The notes below the pieces were generated by a model, which had not been told where the DNA came from, did no database searches, and saw only the letters and a list, made by a program, of their open reading frames with translations. Below, in pieces: positions 4,847 through 35,591 of a stretch of DNA of 36,755 nt; within the stretch, counting starts at the first letter, position 1; every line of letters begins with the position of its first letter. The DNA is taken from assembly GCA_031365165.1 (NCBI GenBank), contig JANLXP010000380.1, forward strand, positions 1 through 36,755. The letters run 5' to 3'. Position numbers and translations under genes: made by a program. The stretch is from Alphaproteobacteria bacterium (lineage in GTDB: Bacteria; Pseudomonadota; Alphaproteobacteria; Micropepsales; Micropepsaceae).

Positions 4847-4940
4847 CTGCACTTCCCTTACGTTGGCTGAGCAACGGCCCGCTTGCGCCGTGGCCTTCCG
4901 TCGTGCGTAATCTTTGGCGACCCTCTCTGCCGGAGCCCGC

Positions 4941-5480
4941 ATGACCTTGTCCAAGTTGCTGCCCCTGATCGCCATCGTCATGGCCGTTGCGTGCCAAGCC
5001 GCCCTGGCAGCGAACTCGAAGGACATGGCCCGCGTCCGCAAATCTCAGAACTTCTCGCAGTGCATCCGCTGCGATCTCTCGGGCGCAAACTTCGAAGACC
5101 GCTTCTTTCAATTGGCTGTGCTCATCGAGGCAAACCTCTCGGGCAGCAATTTCGATGGCGCGAACCTGGCCGGCACGCAGCTAACCAACGCGAACTTGTC
5201 GAAGGGAACGTTCCGCTACACCAACTTCTCGGGCGCGCAGATGCAGGGCGCGGACCTGCGTGGTGCCGACTTCCGAGGGTCGTGGTTCAATTGGGCTTGG
5301 TTCGCTGGGGCAAAACTTGACGGCGCCGATTTCACGAACGCGCACTTCGTCGGCGCCCAGCTTCAGGGCACCGACCTTTCTAAGGCAATTGGATTAACGT
5401 CGTCGCAAGTTCGCACGGCCTGCGCCGACGCAACCACGAGGCTGCCGCCGGGCGTCGAACGGCCTTGGTGCCCGTACTAG
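4941..5480 (+). CDS. secreted pentapeptide-repeat protein
   Basis: Signal peptide MTLSKLLPLIAIVMAVACQAALA, then runs of A(D/N)LxG-type pentapeptides (ANLSGSNFDGANLAGTQLTNANLS...). GGAG SD before ATG 4941. The TTG at 4914 is a less likely start. Confidence 0.8.
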   Translation: MTLSKLLPLIAIVMAVACQAALAANSKDMARVRKSQNFSQCIRCDLSGANFEDRFFQLAVLIEANLSGSNFDGANLAGTQLTNANLSKGTFRYTNFSGAQMQGADLRGADFRGSWFNWAWFAGAKLDGADFTNAHFVGAQLQGTDLSKAIGLTSSQVRTACADATTRLPPGVERPWCPY

Positions 5481-6638: not shown

Positions 6639-8396
6639 TCAGTTCGTCCAGGGTTCGCGAATCTCGGGCTTGGAGAAGTGGAAGCCCTGCAGATAGTCCA
6701 CGCCGAACGCGCGCAGAATGTCGGCCTCGCGCGCATCCGAAACCCATTCGGCGACGGTCTCAAGATTGAAGTTCTTGGCCAGGTCGACGAGCGTGCGCAC
6801 GAAAATCTGATTGTCGCGGCTGTCCGCCATGCCTTTGACGAACGACCCGTCGATCTTGACCATATCGACCTTCAGCGACTGCAGATTGCGGAACGACGTA
6901 TAACCGGCGCCGAAATCGTCGATCGCGACCTTCGCGCCGAGGGCGCGCACGCGGCTGACGAAGCGCATGCTTTCCTCGATATCGATCAGCGCCGCCGTCT
7001 CCGTCAGCTCGACGATAAGCCGCGGCACCACATCGGTGTGATTTTCGAGATAGGCGACGAACGCTTCCAACGTCGGCCGGTCGCTCGCTGTCATCCCCGA
7101 AACATTGAGCGAGAGGCGCGCACCGCGATACTTCTTCAATGACGCAATCGTTAGCTCAAGAACTCGTCGATCAAGCCGGCGCACAAGGCCCAACTGCTCG
7201 GCAACCGGAATGAAATCGCCCGCCGCAATAACCTGACCCTCGGGCCGCGAAATGCGCACAAGGCATTCGTGCGCCACCGCTTCGCTGGTCTTGGCGTCGA
7301 CGATGGACTGATAGGCCAGAACGACGCGATTCTCGGACAACGCCGTAATGATCTGATCGCCGATCGCAACTGTGCGCTTGCGCAACGACTCGCGCTGCGG
7401 CGAATGCGAATAGGCGGCATAGTTGTCGCGCCCGTGCGCCTTCGCGCGATCGAGTGCTTCTTCGGCACGTGCCATGGCTTCCTGGCTGTTGCGTGCGTCC
7501 TGCGGCAACGCGACGATACCAACGGACACGCTGACGCTGACCGCGCCGCCGCGTGTCGGCACCACGCGCGAGCGGACGGCTTCGCGCAACACTTCGGTAC
7601 GCTCGGCCATCTCGCCAGCCGTACACCGCTCCAAGATCAAGCCGAACTTGTTGCCGGCTGTCCGGCCAACGACGCCGGCCGTTCCGATGATCTCTGCGAA
7701 TCTGCGCCCGACCGCGACGATAACCTCGTCGGCGACGTCGAACCCGTATGTTTCGTTGATGACCGCAAGATCGTCGATCGCAACCACGCAATACGCAGCA
7801 GGCTCACGCTGCGCCGCAGCCTTCAATTCCAGATGCTGGGCCAACCGCTCGCGCAAGCGAATGCGGTTCAAGTGCCCCGTCATTTCGTCGTAGCTCGCGG
7901 CCCACTCAAGATGCGCCTCGCGCAACTTGCGTTCCGTGATGTTGCGCACGGTGCCGACGACGCGTTCCGTCTGGCCGTTTTGGCCGACGAGGCACACGCC
8001 GCAATCCTCAACCCAAACCGGCCCCGCACCCGACTTCATCATGTACTCGAGGCGGAACGTGCCGCCGTCGCCCGGCGGGGTCAGCGCCAACCGGAGCCGC
8101 GCTTCAACGGCATCTTGATCGATCAATAGGTGGAACGTCGCATCGCTCTCATAGTGCTCAAGCTCGCCGACGCCCAGATGCGCGCTCGGATCGCCGCTCC
8201 ACACGATGTTTCCGTCGCTGGGCGTCCAGTCGTAAACGACGTCGCCACTTGCGGCGAGCGCGAGACGCAGCCGTTCTTCCTCACCAAGCTCGGCGAGCTT
8301 TTGGACGGAATTTGCCTGACGACGAGTGAACACGACCGTATTGCCCCCAACACACGCGAGCCGCTCTTCGCAGACGGGGGTTCCCCCTTCTCGCAC
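6639..8396 (-). CDS. PAS - degenerate GGDEF - EAL c-di-GMP signalling protein
   Basis: The GGDEF position reads AGNKF (nt 7644-7658). The EAL position reads ECL (7260-7268). ELTE, DDFGAGYTS, KIDGSF and QGF EAL-domain motifs are present. GTG start at 8396 is uncertain. Confidence 0.85.
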   Translation of the reverse strand: MREGGTPVCEERLACVGGNTVVFTRRQANSVQKLAELGEEERLRLALAASGDVVYDWTPSDGNIVWSGDPSAHLGVGELEHYESDATFHLLIDQDAVEARLRLALTPPGDGGTFRLEYMMKSGAGPVWVEDCGVCLVGQNGQTERVVGTVRNITERKLREAHLEWAASYDEMTGHLNRIRLRERLAQHLELKAAAQREPAAYCVVAIDDLAVINETYGFDVADEVIVAVGRRFAEIIGTAGVVGRTAGNKFGLILERCTAGEMAERTEVLREAVRSRVVPTRGGAVSVSVSVGIVALPQDARNSQEAMARAEEALDRAKAHGRDNYAAYSHSPQRESLRKRTVAIGDQIITALSENRVVLAYQSIVDAKTSEAVAHECLVRISRPEGQVIAAGDFIPVAEQLGLVRRLDRRVLELTIASLKKYRGARLSLNVSGMTASDRPTLEAFVAYLENHTDVVPRLIVELTETAALIDIEESMRFVSRVRALGAKVAIDDFGAGYTSFRNLQSLKVDMVKIDGSFVKGMADSRDNQIFVRTLVDLAKNFNLETVAEWVSDAREADILRAFGVDYLQGFHFSKPEIREPWTN

Positions 8397-11260: not shown

Positions 11261-11710
11261 CTAGTTCGTGCCGGCGATGCCGACCGACGAGCCGAAGTCG
11301 CGCTTCGCTGCCACGATGGTCACCGTGAAGCCTGCGATGACGTCCAATACTGTCATCAGCATCAACATGAAGAACACCGAATTCGAAAAGCCCAGCATCG
11401 TGATGAACTGGATGATGCAAACGACCGACAGCAGCATCGACAGTCCGTGATTGATGATCGACATCGCATCCGTGCGCGTCGACTTCACGATCTCGACAAA
11501 GAGCAACAGCAAGCTGAGGCCCATGAACACGTCGGCGAACGAAACGCCCCAGGCATCGCCTGAGAACATGCCGACAGTGAAAATCGGCGACGCCATCCAA
11601 GAGGCGACGTTGCCGGGGGTCGCAATCCCGGTCAGCACGACGAAATTGTAGAGAACGAGCGGAAATACCAACAACGGGATGATATTCAACGCCGACAATG
11701 ATCTGCCCAT
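11261..11710 (-). CDS. hypothetical integral membrane protein (4 predicted TM)
   Basis: 149-aa ORF that is strongly hydrophobic throughout and is followed by a terminator. Confidence 0.7.
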   Translation of the reverse strand: MGRSLSALNIIPLLVFPLVLYNFVVLTGIATPGNVASWMASPIFTVGMFSGDAWGVSFADVFMGLSLLLLFVEIVKSTRTDAMSIINHGLSMLLSVVCIIQFITMLGFSNSVFFMLMLMTVLDVIAGFTVTIVAAKRDFGSSVGIAGTN

Positions 11711-27755: not shown

Positions 27756-28082
27756 TCACACGACGACAACACCGTTCTCGACTGTGCACGCGATCCCGGT
27801 CAGCGACTTCCCCTCGCACGGCCCGCTGACGCAGAACCCGTCCTCGACCCGAAACCGCGCGCCATGTGTCGAGCAGACGAGTAACCCGTCCTGATCCATG
27901 AACCGGTCCGGAAACGTCTCAAGCGGCGTGCCCTGATGCGGGCAAGCATTGACGTAGGCCCGCAGCACGCCGTCGCGTCGAACCAAGATCACGTCGCGCC
28001 GCGCAACACCTTCGCCGATCAGGAACCCGCGCGCTTGGCCTTCGGCAACCTCATCCGCACGGCACAACATGACACCGCTCAC
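27756..28082 (-). CDS. Rieske [2Fe-2S] domain protein (ferredoxin-type)
   Basis: CPHQGTPL...CSTHGARF motif. GTG 28082 overlaps the upstream stop (GTGA). ATG 28070 is an alternative start. Confidence 0.8.
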   Translation of the reverse strand: MSGVMLCRADEVAEGQARGFLIGEGVARRDVILVRRDGVLRAYVNACPHQGTPLETFPDRFMDQDGLLVCSTHGARFRVEDGFCVSGPCEGKSLTGIACTVENGVVVV

Positions 28083-28336
28083 GTAAGCGCCCGCCGCGCG
28101 AGTGTCACAAGCCGCGCCCGCTCAGCCACGGTCCGCACGCGAAACCGCTCGTAGCCGCCGTCGAGCGAGGGCTTCAAATCCGCGAACGGCCCGGCCGGAT
28201 CTTCGTGAAAATGCAAGTAGGCCTTCGCCCCCACATAGAACGTGCCTCGCTTCTTCTCCCTCAAGCGCGGCAATGTCCGCAGCTGCGCCAGCAACGGCTC
28301 AAGTTCGTCGAGCGCATCATCGCCCGCGTGCTTCAT
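28079..28336 (-). CDS. hypothetical 85-aa protein
   Basis: ATG 28336 overlaps the S26-like gene stop (ATGA), indicating translational coupling. No family recognised. Confidence 0.5.
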   Translation of the reverse strand: MKHAGDDALDELEPLLAQLRTLPRLREKKRGTFYVGAKAYLHFHEDPAGPFADLKPSLDGGYERFRVRTVAERARLVTLARRALT

Positions 28337-29304
28337 TTCGTGACTGGCGGGCAATAATCCGACGCCTCGATTGCCGCCGTGGGGACGAGCGTCTTCCCAA
28401 TCCGATGCCAATCGCCCGACCAAATGATAAACAGCGCCCGGCCGCCAAAGTTATCGTTGGAGACCGGGCCCCGCGTCCGGCTGTCGTTGGCGTTTTCCCT
28501 GTTATCGCCGATCACAAAAAACCAGTCATCGGGAACTGTCGCTTCGTCGGTGTTGCGAGAGAATTCGACCGAGTCGAAATTTTGCACGACATAGCTCCGC
28601 CCTCCGACCGTTTCAACAGAGCGGCGTGCAAGTTCCCCGCTGTCGGCCTCGGGGACCGAACAAAGAACACGCTGTGGAATCTCACGCCCGTCAACCAGAA
28701 CTTTGCGCTCGATCACCGCAACTGTCTGCCCTCCCACCGCAATGAGGCGATAGATGAACGCTCCCTCTCCCTCCTGAGGCCAGCTAACGACAACAATTGA
28801 TCCAAGCTGGCCCGCCAGGTCGCTTTGGGTTGCGCCACGCGCAGTCTTGACCCAAAAATACTCGCCCTCCATCAAACTCGGCTCTAAAGAACCACTGGTC
28901 GCGCGATAGGGCTTGTAGGCGCCAAACAGCGACGGCTCGCCGATCACCGTCAACAGCCCCCTGTTCGCGCCTTGGCTGACAAGCGTGAACGCGAGCACGA
29001 AACCAACGTAAACGTACCAACAGTGATAGCTTCGCCGCGGAACTTCAGAGTGGCGCCAAGCATAGATGCTCGCTTCAATCGCACTCCCCCACGCCAAAAG
29101 GATGGGAGCGCCGAACGCCGCAACAAAGCCCGCGAAACTCGATGGTATCGCAGTCCAAAAAAGTGCAAACAATGCCGCGAATACGCCAACGATATAAGCG
29201 GCGAGACGCGCGCGCCCTGTGTAGAGCTGTCCTGCACCAGGTGCGGCCAGACCAAGCAAAACCGCCACCCACCAATGCCTGCGTACCGTCGTGCTTTCTT
29301 CCAT
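28333..29304 (-). CDS. S26 (signal peptidase I)-like protein with three-TM N-terminal extension
   Basis: Box B SGSLEPSL, box C GSIVVVSWP, box E VIGDNRENANDSRTRGPV. The box D position reads IYRLIAVGG instead of IKRVIGLPG. ATG 29304 shares one nt with the EVE gene stop. Confidence 0.75.
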   Translation of the reverse strand: MEESTTVRRHWWVAVLLGLAAPGAGQLYTGRARLAAYIVGVFAALFALFWTAIPSSFAGFVAAFGAPILLAWGSAIEASIYAWRHSEVPRRSYHCWYVYVGFVLAFTLVSQGANRGLLTVIGEPSLFGAYKPYRATSGSLEPSLMEGEYFWVKTARGATQSDLAGQLGSIVVVSWPQEGEGAFIYRLIAVGGQTVAVIERKVLVDGREIPQRVLCSVPEADSGELARRSVETVGGRSYVVQNFDSVEFSRNTDEATVPDDWFFVIGDNRENANDSRTRGPVSNDNFGGRALFIIWSGDWHRIGKTLVPTAAIEASDYCPPVTK

Positions 29305-30022: not shown

Positions 30023-31030
30023 CTAGTGCTCGCTCTTTAAAGGCCGCGACAGCAGCGCGCCGATCGCAGCTTCCACGCCGATACGGCCCGCCACGATCTC
30101 GGCAACCGCCGCCGCAATCGGCATTTCGACATTAGCGGCCTTGGCCCGCATCACCAAAGCCTCCGCCGTCGCCGCCCCTTCGGCCAAGGGACCGCCGTCG
30201 TCTGCGCGCCCGCCTTGCGAAAGGCGCACGCCCAACGAAAAATTCCGCGACTGCACGCTCGACGCCGTCAGCATCAAATCGCCAAGCCCGCTCAACCCGC
30301 CCATCGTCTCGGCCTTCGCGCCAAGCGCGAGCCCGAACCTTGTCATCTCCGCAAACCCGCGCGTGGTGAGCGCCGCGCGCGCACTCTCGCCGAACCCACG
30401 GCCTTCGACGATGCCGCACGCGATCGCGAGCACGTTCTTCACCGCGCCACCGATCGCAACCCCAACGACGTCGCTCGAGACGTAAGGCCGGAACGCCAAC
30501 GTGCCGATCGCGCGCGCAACCTCATCGGCTAGCACGGCATCGTCGAGCGCCAGCGTCACCGCACACGGAAGGCCGCGCGCAACCTCTGTTGCAAAGCTCG
30601 GTCCCGACAACATCCCGAATGTCATGGCCGGCGCCGTCGCACGTGCGACTTCGGGCATCAACATGCCGGTCGCGCGCTCGATCCCTTTCGCACAAATTAA
30701 AACCGGCACACCGGCGCGCGCATGAAGCGCGATCATCTGCACCGTGGCGCGCAAATGCTGCGCCGGACAAACGAGCAAGATCGCGTCGACGTCGCTGAGT
30801 GCAGCCGCATCGCCCGTCGCCATGATCGCAGGGCTCAAAGGAACGCCGGGCAGAAAGGGTAAATTTTCGTGCACCTTAGAAATGGCGCGAACGACCTCGG
30901 GCTCGCGGGCCCAAAGTGTCACCGTTCGCCCGGCGCTTGCTGACGCTTGCGCCAGGGCCGTGCCCCATGCTCCGGCGCCGACGACGCCGATGTGGCTTAT
31001 CCCCGAGGCACTTGCCCGCTTTCCGATCAC
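30023..31030 (-). CDS. gpsA: NAD(P)H-dependent glycerol-3-phosphate dehydrogenase
   Basis: IGVVGAGAWGTALA Rossmann motif and GAVKNVLAIACG. GTG 31030 preferred because the longer ORF (to 31153) would overlap the divergent TetR gene. Confidence 0.88.
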   Translation of the reverse strand: MIGKRASASGISHIGVVGAGAWGTALAQASASAGRTVTLWAREPEVVRAISKVHENLPFLPGVPLSPAIMATGDAAALSDVDAILLVCPAQHLRATVQMIALHARAGVPVLICAKGIERATGMLMPEVARATAPAMTFGMLSGPSFATEVARGLPCAVTLALDDAVLADEVARAIGTLAFRPYVSSDVVGVAIGGAVKNVLAIACGIVEGRGFGESARAALTTRGFAEMTRFGLALGAKAETMGGLSGLGDLMLTASSVQSRNFSLGVRLSQGGRADDGGPLAEGAATAEALVMRAKAANVEMPIAAAVAEIVAGRIGVEAAIGALLSRPLKSEH

Positions 31031-31094
31031 ACCTGGGTCACCAAGTGAATGTTTTGTTGAATATTTACTCGGAACGTATACATTCGACGCACAA

Positions 31095-31748
31095 ATGTTG
31101 TGCAAAGACACCGTTAGAGGAAACATCCTAGAAGCGGCGAAAAAGCGTTTCACCCACTACGGTTACGCCAAAACGACGATGGCCGAGATAGCCGCGGACT
31201 GCAACATGTCCCCCGGCAATCTGTATCGGTACTTTCCAGGCAAACTGGACATCGCAGAGGCGATCAGCACCGAAGCTGGTGAAGCAGCAATTTCCAAGCT
31301 TCGCGAGGTTCTCCGCCGCCCGGGCCGCTCCGCAAGAGAGCGGTTGCGCGACTTTTGTTTCGCCGACATGCGGCTGACCTACGAACAGCTCGAGTTCGAC
31401 AAGCAAATATATGAGATGGCGCGCGTCATCTCGATGGAGCGGCCACAATTCGCGAACCGGATTTTGGCGCTCCACCGGGCACTTTTGTCGGAGATCCTGG
31501 CTGCCGGAAACGCTTCGGGTGAGTTCTCTATAGAAGACGTGGTCTTCACCGCGGAAATGCTCCAATCCGCCACGATGAAGTTCCGCTACCCGCAGTTGCA
31601 CTCAAAGCTCTCCTACGACCGGCTGGAGCGAGAGCTTGAAGGGGTCCTTCACCTCTTACTAAATGGCCTGGACGACGGCGGCGCAGGCCGCGAAGTGCCC
31701 CGCAAGGCACAAGAATCGCAGAAACCCGACACTCTCGTTAGCCTTTGA
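31095..31748 (+). CDS. TetR-family transcriptional regulator
   Basis: ILEAAKKRFTHYGYAKTTMAEIAADCNMSPGNLYRYFPGK HTH signature. ATG 31095. Confidence 0.85.
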   Translation: MLCKDTVRGNILEAAKKRFTHYGYAKTTMAEIAADCNMSPGNLYRYFPGKLDIAEAISTEAGEAAISKLREVLRRPGRSARERLRDFCFADMRLTYEQLEFDKQIYEMARVISMERPQFANRILALHRALLSEILAAGNASGEFSIEDVVFTAEMLQSATMKFRYPQLHSKLSYDRLERELEGVLHLLLNGLDDGGAGREVPRKAQESQKPDTLVSL

Positions 31749-31903
31749 CCTGATCCAAAGGTTAACAAACTGCGGCAGGACGTCGCAGCTGGCGTAATGA
31801 GTGAACAAAAACGATTTCATTCATTGATTTCTGATCAGGGGTCCTCTACATAGAGATCACCGCGGGAGACACCCCGCCCCAAGATTTCAAAGGAGAGACT
31901 TCC

Positions 31904-32011
31904 ATGACGAACAACACAAACCTCGTGACCCAGATCTCGACGACAGTGGCCGGCTTCGTTCTCGGCGCATACGGCCTCGCGTTCCTGGTGAATACGCTGA
32001 ACTGGCTCTAA
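31904..32011 (+). CDS. 35-aa hydrophobic micro-protein
   Basis: Hand translation MTNNTNLVTQISTTVAGFVLGAYGLAFLVNTLNWL. Strong SD AAGGAGAG lies 5-6 nt upstream. A dedicated terminator follows directly. Confidence 0.5.
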   Translation: MTNNTNLVTQISTTVAGFVLGAYGLAFLVNTLNWL

Positions 32012-32037
32012 TCCTCCCCGTGAGACAGTTCGCCCCG

Positions 32038-32082
32038 AAACGGGCGGCAGGTCGAAAGACCTAGCCGCCCGTTTCCTATTTC
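32038..32082 (+). terminator. Rho-independent terminator
   Basis: AAACGGGCGGCAGGTC-GAAA-GACCT(A)GCCGCCCGTTT, a 16-bp stem with one bulge and a GAAA loop, followed by a T-rich tail. Confidence 0.7.
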
Positions 32083-32182
32083 GGGCCGGCGTCGGATGGA
32101 TGAAGCGCCCATGAACGGCGCGGCGGGACGCCATTCAGAAGCAGAGGACTAGCCTGCACGCGACGATCGAAAGGATCACCCG

Positions 32183-32764
32183 ATGTCGCGCCTTATGTCT
32201 TCCACCGCCATCATCCTAACGCTCATAGCCGTCGGAACGATCGGCGACGCTTCCGCCGGCAACGGCGCGCTGGTCGCCCAACTGCGCAAGAGCGTTCAGA
32301 ATCAAGCGAAGATCGAGCAGCACCGCGATATCGGCGCGACGGCGCACCGGGTGAACCCCGCCGACATCGTCCTCGGCTTAGTCGGCCAAGGCCGGATGAA
32401 CCTCCGCGCCGGTCAAGCCATCTCGAACAACAACGCAACGACCGATCAGCAAGGCAGCGCCAACCTCGCCGCCATCGCTCAGTCCGGCCAGAACCTAACC
32501 GCAACGATCACGCAATCCGGCACCGCCAACAGCGCAACCGTCCGCCAGTTCGGCCGCGGCAACAACACGACGATCGCGCAAGTGGGCGACGACAACACGG
32601 CCTGCGTGATTCAGATCGGCCGCAACCTCGATACCGGCCTCACCCAAACCGGCGGACAATCGACGGGCCTCCTGCAAACCCGCCGCGGCACGCGCGAGAT
32701 CCCAGTGGAACTCTGCACCGCCGCCGCAAATCTGAAACGCCAGCAGGTCAAGCGGCTGCTGTAG
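32183..32764 (+). CDS. curlin-repeat (CsgA/CsgB-like) secreted protein
   Basis: Signal peptide ending DASA. Residues 89-165 (nt 32447-32677) form seven consecutive 11-residue QxGxxNxAx(I/V)x units. Confidence 0.75.
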   Translation: MSRLMSSTAIILTLIAVGTIGDASAGNGALVAQLRKSVQNQAKIEQHRDIGATAHRVNPADIVLGLVGQGRMNLRAGQAISNNNATTDQQGSANLAAIAQSGQNLTATITQSGTANSATVRQFGRGNNTTIAQVGDDNTACVIQIGRNLDTGLTQTGGQSTGLLQTRRGTREIPVELCTAAANLKRQQVKRLL

Positions 32765-32770
32765 CTCTTC

Positions 32771-32792
32771 GCGCCGGCGTTACGGCCGGCGC
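32771..32792. repeat. GC hairpin GCGCCGGC-N6-GCCGGCGC between convergent genes
   Basis: Perfect 8-bp stem. The loop contains the S41 stop codon. No U-tract on either strand. Confidence 0.5.
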
Positions 32793-34234
32793 GCAATCGC
32801 GAGTGCCTGCTGCAGCACGACATCCGATATCGGCTCAACCACCGGTGTATCGATGGCAATGTCGGGAACGACGCCACGCGGGCGCGTATCGCCGTTGACG
32901 CGGATGATCTCGGCCTTCGGAAAACCGACCGTGATCCCCGTGCGCGAGAGCGTGAACTGCTCCATAGCGCCGATCGTCGTCGCGAGATCCGACGTCTCCT
33001 CACCGACAATCGCGGCAAACCCGTAATCTTGCGACTGCGCGGCCACCTGCACGGTATTCGAATAGGAATGGCGGTTGATCAGCAGATAGACCTTGCCGCC
33101 GAACCGCGCGCCGCGCCGCGGCTCGACCATCGGGAGGTCGAACGAGAACACCTCGCCGACGCGATGCTTTGCATAAGCCGCGGCAAACTTCGCCGAGATC
33201 CCTTCCTTGTCGTCGGGCGCCATGGCGACACGCTTGGCATTCGAAGCGATCGCGGCCTCGCTCGCTTTGATCCGAAATTCCCTGCAAAAGCGGAAGGGTT
33301 TGTTCGCGTACCAAGCAACCACGAGGTCGCTGAAAGAATTGTCGCCGCCGGGATTGTCCCGCAAATCGATCACCACCGCTCGCGCGCGGGCGTTCACAAA
33401 GGCGCCGAACGAGCCGTCGATGAAAGTGCGGAACTGCTCGACGTCCCAAATGTTCTTCGCGTTCGGATCGTTGTTGTAGAACGGACCCGGCCTCAGATAG
33501 CCGACATCGCCGATCATCCGAAACGTGCGCTTGTCCCAATCGAGTTCAAGCGAAGGCGCCACACGTGCCGAGGCGGCCAGAATCTCCTCCCGCGTCCGTG
33601 CAGGCAACGACACTTCGTGTGACCCACCTTGGGCATTACGAAGCGTGAGTTGGAACTGGTCCGCGGGACCGAGTTCGAGCCAAAGCAAAGCGGCAAATCG
33701 ATTCTCAAGCAGCGTGTTGAGCATGTAGTCGTTGTCGGCTGACACATTCGCGCCAATCCGCTTCAGCCAATCGCCGATCGGCACGCCGTTCAGAGCCACG
33801 ATCTCCTCACCCGGTGCGATCGGCGCGGGACTGGCGTTGCGGACAACAAACACGCGGCCCGCCTTGACCCGAATAAAAACCGGCATCGTCCGTCCGCCGG
33901 CATCGCGATAGGCGCCGTAAGCATCCGTCGGAAAGTCGATGCGCGAATGCGCCACGCGCCCGAACGCCATGAATTTCTGAAACGCACCGCCGGCCTCAAC
34001 CGCCGTCATCGGCCCGTCGAAGCCAGACATCGTGGCTTGAAACAGCGCGTCATACTCGCGTTGCGGGCGCCGCGCGAACAGGTTGAAATGCGAGGCGGCA
34101 AGCTTCGCGTAAAGTTCGGCGAAATCGGCCCGAATGGCCGACGGATCGAAGCGCTGCTCGGAAGGCGGCGCAGCGGCAGCCAAGACCCCAGCGAACGAAA
34201 GAACGACGGCAAAGCCAACCGCAAGAAGACGCAT
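32780..34234 (-). CDS. S41-family (tail-specific/C-terminal processing type) peptidase, secreted
   Basis: ATG 34234 with AAGGAG SD. Signal peptide MRLLAVGFAVVLSFAGVLAAAA. IDLRDNPGGDN motif. Confidence 0.85.
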   Translation of the reverse strand: MRLLAVGFAVVLSFAGVLAAAAPPSEQRFDPSAIRADFAELYAKLAASHFNLFARRPQREYDALFQATMSGFDGPMTAVEAGGAFQKFMAFGRVAHSRIDFPTDAYGAYRDAGGRTMPVFIRVKAGRVFVVRNASPAPIAPGEEIVALNGVPIGDWLKRIGANVSADNDYMLNTLLENRFAALLWLELGPADQFQLTLRNAQGGSHEVSLPARTREEILAASARVAPSLELDWDKRTFRMIGDVGYLRPGPFYNNDPNAKNIWDVEQFRTFIDGSFGAFVNARARAVVIDLRDNPGGDNSFSDLVVAWYANKPFRFCREFRIKASEAAIASNAKRVAMAPDDKEGISAKFAAAYAKHRVGEVFSFDLPMVEPRRGARFGGKVYLLINRHSYSNTVQVAAQSQDYGFAAIVGEETSDLATTIGAMEQFTLSRTGITVGFPKAEIIRVNGDTRPRGVVPDIAIDTPVVEPISDVVLQQALAIARRP

Positions 34235-34286
34235 CAACCCAACTCCTTTGATCACGCTTCCGGGGCTACCAGGTCGTGCCTATATA

Positions 34287-34316
34287 GTCAGGACGAACAC
34301 CTCCTATTTTCCTGAC
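34287..34316. promoter_or_regulatory. inverted repeat GTCAGGA-N16-TCCTGAC in the divergent promoter region
   Basis: Read directly. Adjacent to a TATATA stretch (34281-34286). Confidence 0.4.
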
Positions 34317-34337
34317 GAAGTCCTGAGGGCCCTGGAA

Positions 34338-35591
34338 TTGCTCGAAAAACCGTCGCCCGGCACGATCAAAGTCGGCGCGTGGCATGCGGCGCGCGCGACA
34401 GGCGAACTCACGGGCGGCGGCGTGACGGAGCGCCTCGAACCCAAGGTCATGGACCTCCTGTTCCTGCTGGCCGGAAGCCCGGGCAAGGCGTTCAGCAAGG
34501 ACGAGATCATGGCGGCGCTTTGGCCGAACGTCATCGTCGGCGACGATACGTTGGCGCGCGCCGTCTCGCGCCTGCGCAAGGCGCTGGCCGACGATGCCAA
34601 GACACCCGGCTACATCGAAACGCTGCCTAAGCGCGGCTACCGGTTGATCGCCAAGGTCTCCCCGGGAGACGCCGAAGACGCCGCGCCATCGGCGACACCA
34701 CCGAAAGCACGAAAGCTATCGCCCATCGCCCTCGGTGCGGCAGCGGCGGGCACAGTCTTCCTGACCATGGTGCTGCTTGGCGCTGCCTTGCGCGCGCTGC
34801 CACGCCCCGAAGGCGACGCAATGGCCCGGACCTTGGTCGAGCACGCGAATGATTTCTATTTCCAATACAAACGAACCGACAACGAGGAAGCAATCGCACT
34901 CTTCGAGCGCGTGTTGACCGACCGGCCCGACCACGCGCCGGCCCTTGCAGGTCTCGCAAACGCATTGCTGCAGAACGTGATCCGATGGCCCAGCGAACGG
35001 GGCGCGCCGGAGATGACGAAACTCGCCGATGCTCTGGCAAGCGGACGAACGAAGACGCCTGCCGCGCAGCAACTTACGGCCCGTGCGCGCGTGCTTGCTG
35101 AGCGCGCGGTCGCGATCGCACCGGCCGACCCGGCAGCCCTCAAAGCACTCGGCTTTGCGCAGAGCGTCGCCGGCGAATTCGATGCCGCGATCTCCACGTA
35201 TCAGCATGCGGTTGCGCTCGACGCCGACGCATGGGGCCCTCTCATCAACATCGGCGACGTTCTCGAAATCGCAGGTCGAAAATCAGAAGCGCTGCCATCC
35301 TTCGAGCGCGCCTACGCTGCGATGACGCGCGTCTATGAGAAGGAGGCCGCGCGCATTCGGCCGTGGTACGCCGAACTTGGCGTGGTGATAGCCGATCGCC
35401 ACCGCGACAACGGCACTTTGGGCGAAGCCGAAAGCTGGTACCGCCGTGTCCTCGCCTACGCACCGCTTCACCGCGGGGCGACAGAGCACTTGGCCGTCTT
35501 GTTGCGACACCAAGGCGACACCGCAAGCGCGGACAATCTTTGCGCAACCCTGCAACAGCGCACCGGCGAAGCGTGCAGCGAGCAAAACTAG
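34338..35591 (+). CDS. membrane-anchored winged-helix (OmpR/CadC-type) regulator with periplasmic TPR domain
   Basis: LEPKVMDLLFLLAGSPGKAFSKDEIMAALWP...YIETLPKRGYRL wHTH, then one TM (IALGAAAAGTVFLTMVLLGAAL), then TPR-like repeats. TTG 34338 with GAGGG SD is the only plausible start that avoids overlap with the S41 gene. Confidence 0.8.
   Translation: MLEKPSPGTIKVGAWHAARATGELTGGGVTERLEPKVMDLLFLLAGSPGKAFSKDEIMAALWPNVIVGDDTLARAVSRLRKALADDAKTPGYIETLPKRGYRLIAKVSPGDAEDAAPSATPPKARKLSPIALGAAAAGTVFLTMVLLGAALRALPRPEGDAMARTLVEHANDFYFQYKRTDNEEAIALFERVLTDRPDHAPALAGLANALLQNVIRWPSERGAPEMTKLADALASGRTKTPAAQQLTARARVLAERAVAIAPADPAALKALGFAQSVAGEFDAAISTYQHAVALDADAWGPLINIGDVLEIAGRKSEALPSFERAYAAMTRVYEKEAARIRPWYAELGVVIADRHRDNGTLGEAESWYRRVLAYAPLHRGATEHLAVLLRHQGDTASADNLCATLQQRTGEACSEQN

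Follow-up and report, generated by a model that had tools for sequence, protein, structure and literature searches.

The window analysed here is a stretch of 36,755 nucleotides, contig JANLXP010000380.1 of assembly GCA_031365165.1, from an alphaproteobacterium of the family Micropepsaceae that has been found in freshwater-sediment metagenomes, is uncultured and is known only from metagenome-assembled genomes (MAGs). The element in question is a curlin-family gene, whose product carries a Sec-type signal peptide followed by repeats of the CsgA/CsgB type and which stands without any other curli (csg) gene around it. In the orthologous loci, the order is gpsA, TetR, an open reading frame (ORF) of 35 amino acids, curlin and tsaD-hemC-hemD. 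One curlin ORF only is found in the window and in each of these loci, so that no pair of major subunit and nucleator is present in any of them. The coordinates of all features are collected in Table 1.

The product of the ORF is a member of the curlin-repeat family. In a Pfam scan, Curlin_rpt (PF07012) was matched over four stretches with 85.5 bits against a cut-off of 20.7 (E = 2.2e-24), which is far above chance level. Within residues 86-168, self-similarity peaks at an offset of 22, then 11, then 33, which is consistent with 11-residue half-repeats joined into 22-residue curlin repeats, and the core repeats retain the full N/Q-x-G-x-x-N-x-A-x-[IV]-x-Q amyloid kernel. For the mature protein, and with an alignment of 42 sequences, AlphaFold2 placed ten strands at residues 71-172 and two C-terminal helices at residues 175-182 and 186-192; the repeats (residues ~85-175) were modelled as a β-solenoid with a predicted local distance difference test score (pLDDT) of 87-96. 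Tandem strand-turn-strand repeats of about 22 residues, folding as a β-solenoid, are therefore found both in the periodicity and in the model. An earlier model, for which the signal peptide was kept and 20 sequences were used, was poorer, and its Foldseek matches in the PDB were noise; with the better model, the CsgA fibril was the top match in the PDB, weakly (E = 0.036). In a sequence search of the PDB, matches were obtained to 8c50, a curlin-repeat protein (E = 7e-25), and to 8enq, the CsgA fibril of E. coli, and hhalign against the curlin1 family covered residues 59-160 with a probability of 98.3.

The comparison with the E. coli proteins shows both likeness and difference. Like CsgA and CsgB, the window curlin has a Sec signal, the same repeat kernel and a predicted β-solenoid. 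Residues 77-175 match residues 50-148 of CsgB, that is R1-R5, colinearly and without gaps at 39% identity, and the last repeat is degenerate and basic, as is R5 of CsgB; in the best segment, the identity to CsgA is 35%. On the other hand, the window curlin has two conserved cysteines, whereas the E. coli proteins have none, and it lacks a Gly-rich N22-like segment as well as csgDEFG and csgC neighbours. It is not an equivalog of either protein, because its scores lie far under the curated cut-offs of the NCBIfam models (58.7 bits against 165 for CsgB, NF007506; 31.2 bits against 160 for CsgA, NF007470). A CsgB-like versus CsgA-like assignment was also tried and proved uninformative, as both curlins of the alphaproteobacterial clusters described below score higher with CsgB than with CsgA. 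Among solved structures, the best sequence match is the long multi-repeat CsgA of Bacteroidota (8c50; Sleutel et al. 2023), which shares the kernel; the window curlin, however, has 4-5 repeats compared to about 15, and the 74 long curlins examined lack both the Cys pair and the C-terminal tail.

The ends of the protein are also conserved. The signal peptide was read directly from the protein sequence, with cleavage after A23-S24-A25, and the residues M1, R3, A25 and G26 are invariant in an alignment of 20 full-length homologues (A1). In the N-terminal extension that follows, N40, I44 and Q46 of a degenerate curlin-like strand are likewise invariant, and AlphaFold2 predicted a strand at residues 39-45 with a pLDDT below 60.

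A large protein search yielded 23 further full-length homologues of 182-209 amino acids and 47-90% identity, all of them from metagenomes or MAGs and labelled, where a label is given, as Micropepsaceae or Alphaproteobacteria bacterium. Where these records carry a product name, it is "hypothetical protein", which implies that the family is under-annotated. In alignment A1, which includes homologues down to 47% identity, 36 residues are invariant, among them C141, C178 and most of the motif G-T-R-E-I-P-x-E-x-C (G169, R171, E172, P174, E176 and C178). When 1.84 billion representatives were searched with a profile, 3668 matches were obtained, and the N-terminal region was covered by only two other clusters; the full-length architecture is thus that of a narrow clade.

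The repeats and the C-terminal part are far more widespread, being shared with about a hundred short curlins of 120-180 amino acids. Of the 114 short curlin matches, 109 contain both cysteines, separated by 36-41 residues (in most cases 37 or 38); four have neither cysteine, and one truncated sequence has the first only. In the long multi-repeat curlins, the Cys motif occurs in none of 74. In these short curlins, which form a subfamily, the penultimate repeat contains N-x-A-C-[VLI]-[VLI]-Q; a second cysteine follows after 37-38 residues, at the end of a G-[TS]-R-E-[IV]-P-x-E-x-C tail, and next comes a basic segment. C141 and C178 of the window curlin lie 37 residues apart with the motif intact, and judged by its sequence, it belongs to this large, mainly alphaproteobacterial Cys-pair short-curlin subfamily. 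The occurrence of the pair in an all-or-none manner at a fixed spacing is the pattern expected from a structural disulfide.

Most of what the first-pass annotation had said of the protein holds. The ORF with curlin repeats was placed exactly, its seven 11-residue units are real, the two cysteines and the basic tail (...NLKRQQVKRLL) are present, with the Cys pair invariant in the 20 full-length homologues, and the structure prediction that it proposed as a check gave the β-solenoid described above. The Sec signal is also typical by sequence reading, but the non-repeat region of ~60 residues said to follow it shrinks to about residues 26-58. Accordingly, the extent given for the repeats, residues 89-165, was too short, in view of the CsgB alignment (77-175), hhalign (59-160) and the AlphaFold2 strands (71-172). 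The basic tail and the Cys pair are not peculiar to this protein and are rather the hallmark of the subfamily.

The relatives of the window curlin are found in a different genetic setting. In loci L006 (Terricaulis-like), L007 (a MAG) and L018 (Caulobacteraceae), the short Cys-pair curlins belong to one shared three-gene cluster, which consists of a Cys-less curlin of 168 amino acids, CsgH (PF21112, NF041112) and the Cys-pair curlin. Neither csgF nor csgG was found within about ±10 kb of these clusters, and csgE/F/G are absent nearby. The window curlin is 52-54% identical to the csgH-linked Cys-pair curlins over repeats and C-terminus (E ~ 1e-32), with which it shares the Cys pair, the G-T-R-E-I-P-x-E-x-C motif and the basic tail, compared to 30-33% identity to the Cys-less first curlin. 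The window type differs from the cluster curlins in its extra N-terminal region of ~30-45 residues and in its position, alone in a slot of variable content; in the window and in all orthologous loci of the full-length type, it does not lie directly downstream of csgH and a Cys-less 168-residue curlin, and neither csgH nor a partner curlin is adjacent to it. The Cys-less first curlin has exactly 168 amino acids in all three loci, with 70% identity, a QSGYN end and six Curlin_rpt stretches. This curlin is conserved far more strongly than the Cys-pair curlin of the same cluster, a difference that suggests that the two have distinct roles. Genes for pentapeptide-repeat proteins occur in the window (4914-5480, plus strand, 27 kb from the curlin) and, as two copies, directly after the Cys-pair curlin of L006 (10656-11705); this is probably a coincidence.

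The closest known systems are the alphaproteobacterial curlin-csgH-curlin clusters, such as atu4766-4768 of A. tumefaciens and the CsgH system of R. palustris (Dueholm 2012, Taylor 2016). The same kind of three-gene cluster was listed for Agrobacterium and Rhizobium etli by Dueholm et al. 2012 (PMC3521004), and by the literature description, these clusters are alike in layout. In the same work, only curlin subunits and csgH could be found in many Alphaproteobacteria, and an alternative biogenesis pathway was proposed. CsgH is a CsgC-like inhibitor of amyloid nucleation (PMC4838910) and is present in 1839 genomes (Sleutel et al. 2023, PMC10192328). According to a preprint, the genes under the strongest FeuPQ control in A. 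tumefaciens include atu4766-68, for which no function has been demonstrated. CsgA-like genes without CsgG were counted in 1033 of 43,279 CsgA-containing genomes (2%) and called "CsgA orphans" (Sleutel et al. 2023, PMC10192328).

The csg genes were searched for throughout the window and beyond it. A Pfam scan of all plausible genes in the 36.7-kb window found no other csg gene (csgG, csgE, csgF, csgC, csgD or csgH, or a second curlin), and in a six-frame tblastn search with E. coli CsgA-G and the alphaproteobacterial curlin1, CsgH and curlin2, the sole match in the window was the curlin ORF. The same tblastn search of 14 related loci found no csg gene besides the curlin, and by Pfam and tblastn, none of csgE, csgF, csgC and csgH is adjacent to the curlin in the window or in any orthologous locus. 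The other genes of the window are ordinary metabolic or housekeeping genes, among them phaR, a thiolase, a GGDEF-EAL protein, glycosyltransferases, CorA, acetyl-CoA synthetase, signal peptidase, gpsA and tsaD. Two ORFs were considered as a hidden CsgH or CsgF and rejected: the product of 11261-11710 looks like a multi-pass membrane protein and that of 28079-28423 looks cytoplasmic, and neither resembles a csg product. A search of genome contigs with the curlin alignment found nine loci in MAGs, with a second locus only in the form of the damaged copy L016, and tblastn against a plasmid collection gave no match to the curlin. With a CsgH profile, 318 matches were obtained, and the best 120 are of Caulobacterales, Hyphomonadaceae and Terricaulis types.

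Another system of relevance is the Caulobacter holdfast anchor HfaA/HfaB/HfaD, a surface-anchoring system with parts said to resemble CsgA and CsgG. No hfaB/csgG-like gene is present in the window, and the Caulobacteraceae locus L018 is a curlin-csgH-curlin cluster and not hfaABD.

Table 1. Coordinates of the curlin gene, its parts and the neighbouring features (window positions unless a locus is named)
Feature	Position	Strand	Remarks
Curlin-family gene	32183..32764	+	193 amino acids including signal peptide; ATG start; end coordinate includes stop codon
Sec-type signal peptide, residues 1-25	32183..32257	+	MSR, hydrophobic core and A-S-A; cleavage before G26
Clade-specific N-terminal extension, residues ~26-58	32258..32356	+	holds degenerate curlin-like strand N40-Q-A-K-I-E-Q46
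Curlin repeat core, residues ~59-175	32357..32707	+	about 10 β-strands, roughly 5 solenoid turns
Cys141 codon	32603..32605	+	motif N-T-A-C-V-I-Q in penultimate repeat; invariant in alignments A1 and A3
C-terminal tail, residues 176-193	32708..32761	+	E-L-C178 ends G-T-R-E-I-P-V-E-L-C; then predicted helices; basic end KRQQVKRLL
Cys178 codon	32714-32716	+	
Conserved curlin upstream region	32111..32175	+	ATGAAC-N15-CATTCAGA; ribosome-binding site AAAGGA at 32170-32175
Strong hairpin after 35-residue ORF	32037..32075	+	
35-residue single-helix ORF	31904-32011	+	MTNNTNLVTQISTTVAGFVLGAYGLAFLVNTLNWL
TetR	31095-31748	+	TetR_N and TetR_C_27
S41 peptidase	32780-34255	-	
CadC-like regulator (winged helix-turn-helix, transmembrane segment, TPR)	ends 35591	+	
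Cys-less first curlin	L006 8943-9446; L007 1771-2274; L018 5735-6238		

The neighbours of the curlin gene differ between loci. Between the microprotein encoded by the 35-residue ORF and tsaD, the genes of the S41 peptidase and of the divergent CadC-like regulator make up a cassette of two. This pair is present alongside the curlin in the window, L003-L005 and L011, and is absent from the curlin-bearing loci L002, L008, L012 and L013. TetR and the microprotein are accompanied by S41/CadC and no curlin in L020, L022 and L023, which are contexts of a 33-residue microprotein variant; the slot is empty in L021 and is taken by an unrelated AAA_14/DUF4143 ATPase gene in L024. All four combinations of curlin and S41/CadC presence and absence are therefore seen in one slot, so that no neighbour is an obligate partner of the curlin and the neighbours are uninformative on its function. 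A functional link to S41, the CadC-like regulator, TetR or the microprotein was considered and rejected on account of this independent occurrence. The list of neighbours in the first-pass annotation (S41 protease, winged helix-turn-helix-TPR regulator, TetR and micro-protein) was correct as a list; they come and go independently and are not functional partners. Its statement that CsgG, CsgE/F and CsgB are absent from the window agrees with the Pfam and six-frame tblastn results, in which no gene for curli secretion, nucleation or chaperones was found over 32 kb upstream and 4 kb downstream. To treat an orphan curlin as an unusual situation was an overstatement, given that alphaproteobacterial curlins without csgEFG were published in 2012 and CsgA without CsgG was counted in 2023.

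Some further features of these neighbours were noted. The curlin and S41 genes are convergent, with 15 nucleotides between their stop codons (32764/32780) in the window and a 4-nucleotide overlap in L003 (7058-7061); a terminator would not fit between the two, so that transcription probably runs from each into the other. The longest ORF of the CadC-like regulator has 485 amino acids and overlaps the start of the divergent S41 gene (34134-34370). As its orthologues have 406-419 amino acids, the true start is probably near 34370, which leaves a short divergent promoter region. The gene of the GGDEF-EAL protein (6639-8396, minus strand) lies 24 kb from the curlin; cyclic di-GMP signalling, the class to which GGDEF-EAL proteins belong, controls curli in enterobacteria.

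The region directly upstream of the curlin gene is conserved in an alignment of the intergenic regions of L002, L003, L008 and L011, and the sequence given in Table 1 may be a promoter of the extracytoplasmic function (ECF) sigma type. A scan for sigma-70 promoters and terminators gave nothing relevant near the curlin gene, and a search of Rfam over 31000-33200 (E <= 1) gave no riboswitch or known RNA. The hairpin separates the curlin gene from the upstream transcription unit. The 96-nucleotide stretch that holds it (32005-32100) has a folding energy of -48.9 kcal/mol (z = -4.4), and the hairpin is 100% conserved among the curlin-bearing loci, with an equivalent hairpin in curlin-less loci. 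The 35-residue ORF is 97-100% identical across loci whose curlins share only 53-70%, and its differences fall at synonymous third positions; it therefore looks like a genuine, strongly constrained micro-protein, for which no Pfam or Rfam family was matched. Compared with this coding part, its leader of ~110 nucleotides (31795-31903) and the hairpin downstream show still higher conservation. At 31795-31826, the leader contains a near-perfect inverted repeat, AATGAGTGAAC-N8-10-TTCATTCATT, which is probably an operator of the adjacent TetR. TetR and the micro-protein occur together in every locus seen, with or without a curlin.

The curlin is a stand-alone, fast-evolving accessory gene. Where genomes share 93-96% identity in TsaD and 98-99% in TetR, their curlins share only 58-70%. 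In comparisons with five orthologues, the ratio of non-synonymous to synonymous substitution rates (dN/dS) is 0.19-0.52 overall, reaches 0.62 in the N-terminal part and is lower in the repeats, which points to a real coding gene under purifying but relaxed selection. Relaxed purifying selection is common in secreted or surface proteins. An intact ORF is present in the window, and at least eight further loci have one as well. Besides the assembly of the window, the gene is carried by GCA_031375875.1, GCA_044220975.1 and GCA_046153995.1 and by MAGs with the contig prefixes JBKJZU01, JANNEL01, JABFRX01 and JANOFM01. One MAG has two copies of this curlin type (L015, L016), and the second copy, L016 (~1100-1700, MAG JANOFM01), has a frameshift and an in-frame stop. 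The copy of L002 (10001-10549), from a hybrid long-read assembly, has a double frameshift that affects about 30 codons of the first repeats and may be a long-read assembly artefact.

Based on the results presented above, we consider it somewhat probable that the gene encodes a Sec-exported Cys-pair curlin that serves as an envelope subunit or as a nucleator or anchor, by a route independent of csg genes in cis. In an uncultured Micropepsaceae-type lineage of freshwater sediment and related habitats, one Cys-pair curlin would have gained an N-terminal extension of ~30-45 residues. Its product would be a Sec-exported, CsgA/CsgB-like β-solenoid of about five turns. After Sec export, the two cysteines would form a disulfide and staple the C-terminal helix and the tail onto the penultimate rung. 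The protein would then act in the envelope, either as a self-stacking, amyloid-like curlin subunit or as a nucleator or anchor; the degenerate last repeat and the basic tail recall repeat R5 of CsgB, which has been linked to cell-surface tethering and lower self-assembly in published work. Export and assembly would proceed without dependence on csg genes in cis. If the disulfide is formed in the periplasm, the narrow CsgG channel is probably not the route, and such a barred passage would fit the repeated absence of csgEFG around the Cys-pair class. Polymerisation, localisation and CsgG independence of the curlin are thus what we infer from its features.

It is possible, if doubtful, that the gene is part of an ordinary split curli system, in which csgG and csgF, perhaps with csgH and a major curlin, lie at another locus and the window curlin is an extra, separately regulated subunit exported by CsgG, in analogy to the additional csgA/B copies at secondary loci in Rhodopseudomonas. 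This would agree with the presence of CsgG in 98% of the 43,279 CsgA-containing genomes (PMC10192328), with the finding that a genome may contain as many as six csgA/B homologues, frequently at additional loci (Dueholm et al., PMC3521004), and with the MAG that holds two copies of the present type. However, the closest relatives, the csgH-linked Cys-pair curlins, are without csgF/G within ±10 kb, and many Alphaproteobacteria have curlins and csgH only (PMC3521004). In addition, to judge from published CsgG structures, a protein whose two conserved cysteines, 37-38 residues apart, had been oxidised in the periplasm would pass the CsgG constriction only with difficulty, and E. coli CsgA and CsgB contain no cysteine.

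A capped, non-polymerising β-solenoid is quite unlikely. Here, the N-terminal extension and a disulfide-tethered C-terminal helix would block the open ends, and the protein would remain a monomer, in solution or bound to the surface (for example an adhesin or envelope protein), or would terminate or modulate the fibres that another curlin makes. The AlphaFold2 model does place non-repeat helices at both ends of the solenoid, no partner curlin is nearby, and the last repeat is degenerate as in CsgB, where this degeneracy is tied to a reduced propensity for fibre assembly (Sleutel et al.). A precise cap, however, would hardly be expected of an N-terminal region that is predicted with low confidence (pLDDT <60) and evolves fast (dN/dS up to 0.62), and the core repeats keep the full amyloid kernel. 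Finally, a decaying accessory gene without present function, the remnant of a translocated curlin paralogue, would suit the variable slot, the absence of the curlin from close relatives, the frameshifts or stop in the L002 and L016 copies and an evolution far faster than that of the flanking genes, but is highly improbable in view of a dN/dS well below 1 in every pairwise comparison, the 36 invariant residues, including both cysteines, in homologues down to 47% identity, and an ORF that is intact in the window and in eight or more further loci.

Several points weigh against the reading as a Cys-pair envelope curlin that is independent of csg genes in cis. The C141-C178 disulfide is a proposal drawn from conservation and co-occurrence. 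csgG, csgF, csgH and a partner curlin may sit elsewhere in the genome; among the best 120 of the 318 CsgH matches, no Micropepsaceae label is found. In the predicted structure, the C-terminal helix and the N-terminal extension could cap the solenoid and so prevent polymerisation. The CsgB-like reading is not discriminating, because both cluster curlins of Alphaproteobacteria favour the CsgB model. The curlin gene was found in no RNA run, and the copies L002 and L016, which look damaged, imply that it may be dispensable.

A curlin without nearby secretion genes has already been published for Alphaproteobacteria. As far as the searchable literature shows, two aspects may be new: the all-or-none Cys pair that defines the subfamily, and a copy in Micropepsaceae-type bacteria that stands alone and has an extended N-terminus. 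The detail of greatest interest is the conserved Cys pair, and the general picture of curli biology is unchanged by this locus alone. How Alphaproteobacteria without csgE/F/G use their curlin genes has been an open question since 2012; the present organism is uncultured, and relatives of Agrobacterium or Caulobacter are therefore better suited to address it. For this question, a coherent subfamily with an all-or-none Cys pair at fixed spacing would speak in favour of a fold stapled by a disulfide and against export as a threaded chain through a CsgG-type pore. It is unlikely, though conceivable, that the Cys-pair curlins as a whole are a distinct CsgG-independent class of functional amyloid, oxidised in the periplasm and assembled by an undescribed envelope pathway. 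If this were true, the Micropepsaceae copy would be a single gene of that class working without csgH or a partner curlin in cis. One lineage keeps the curlin gene entirely alone, which implies that its role needs no partner encoded alongside.

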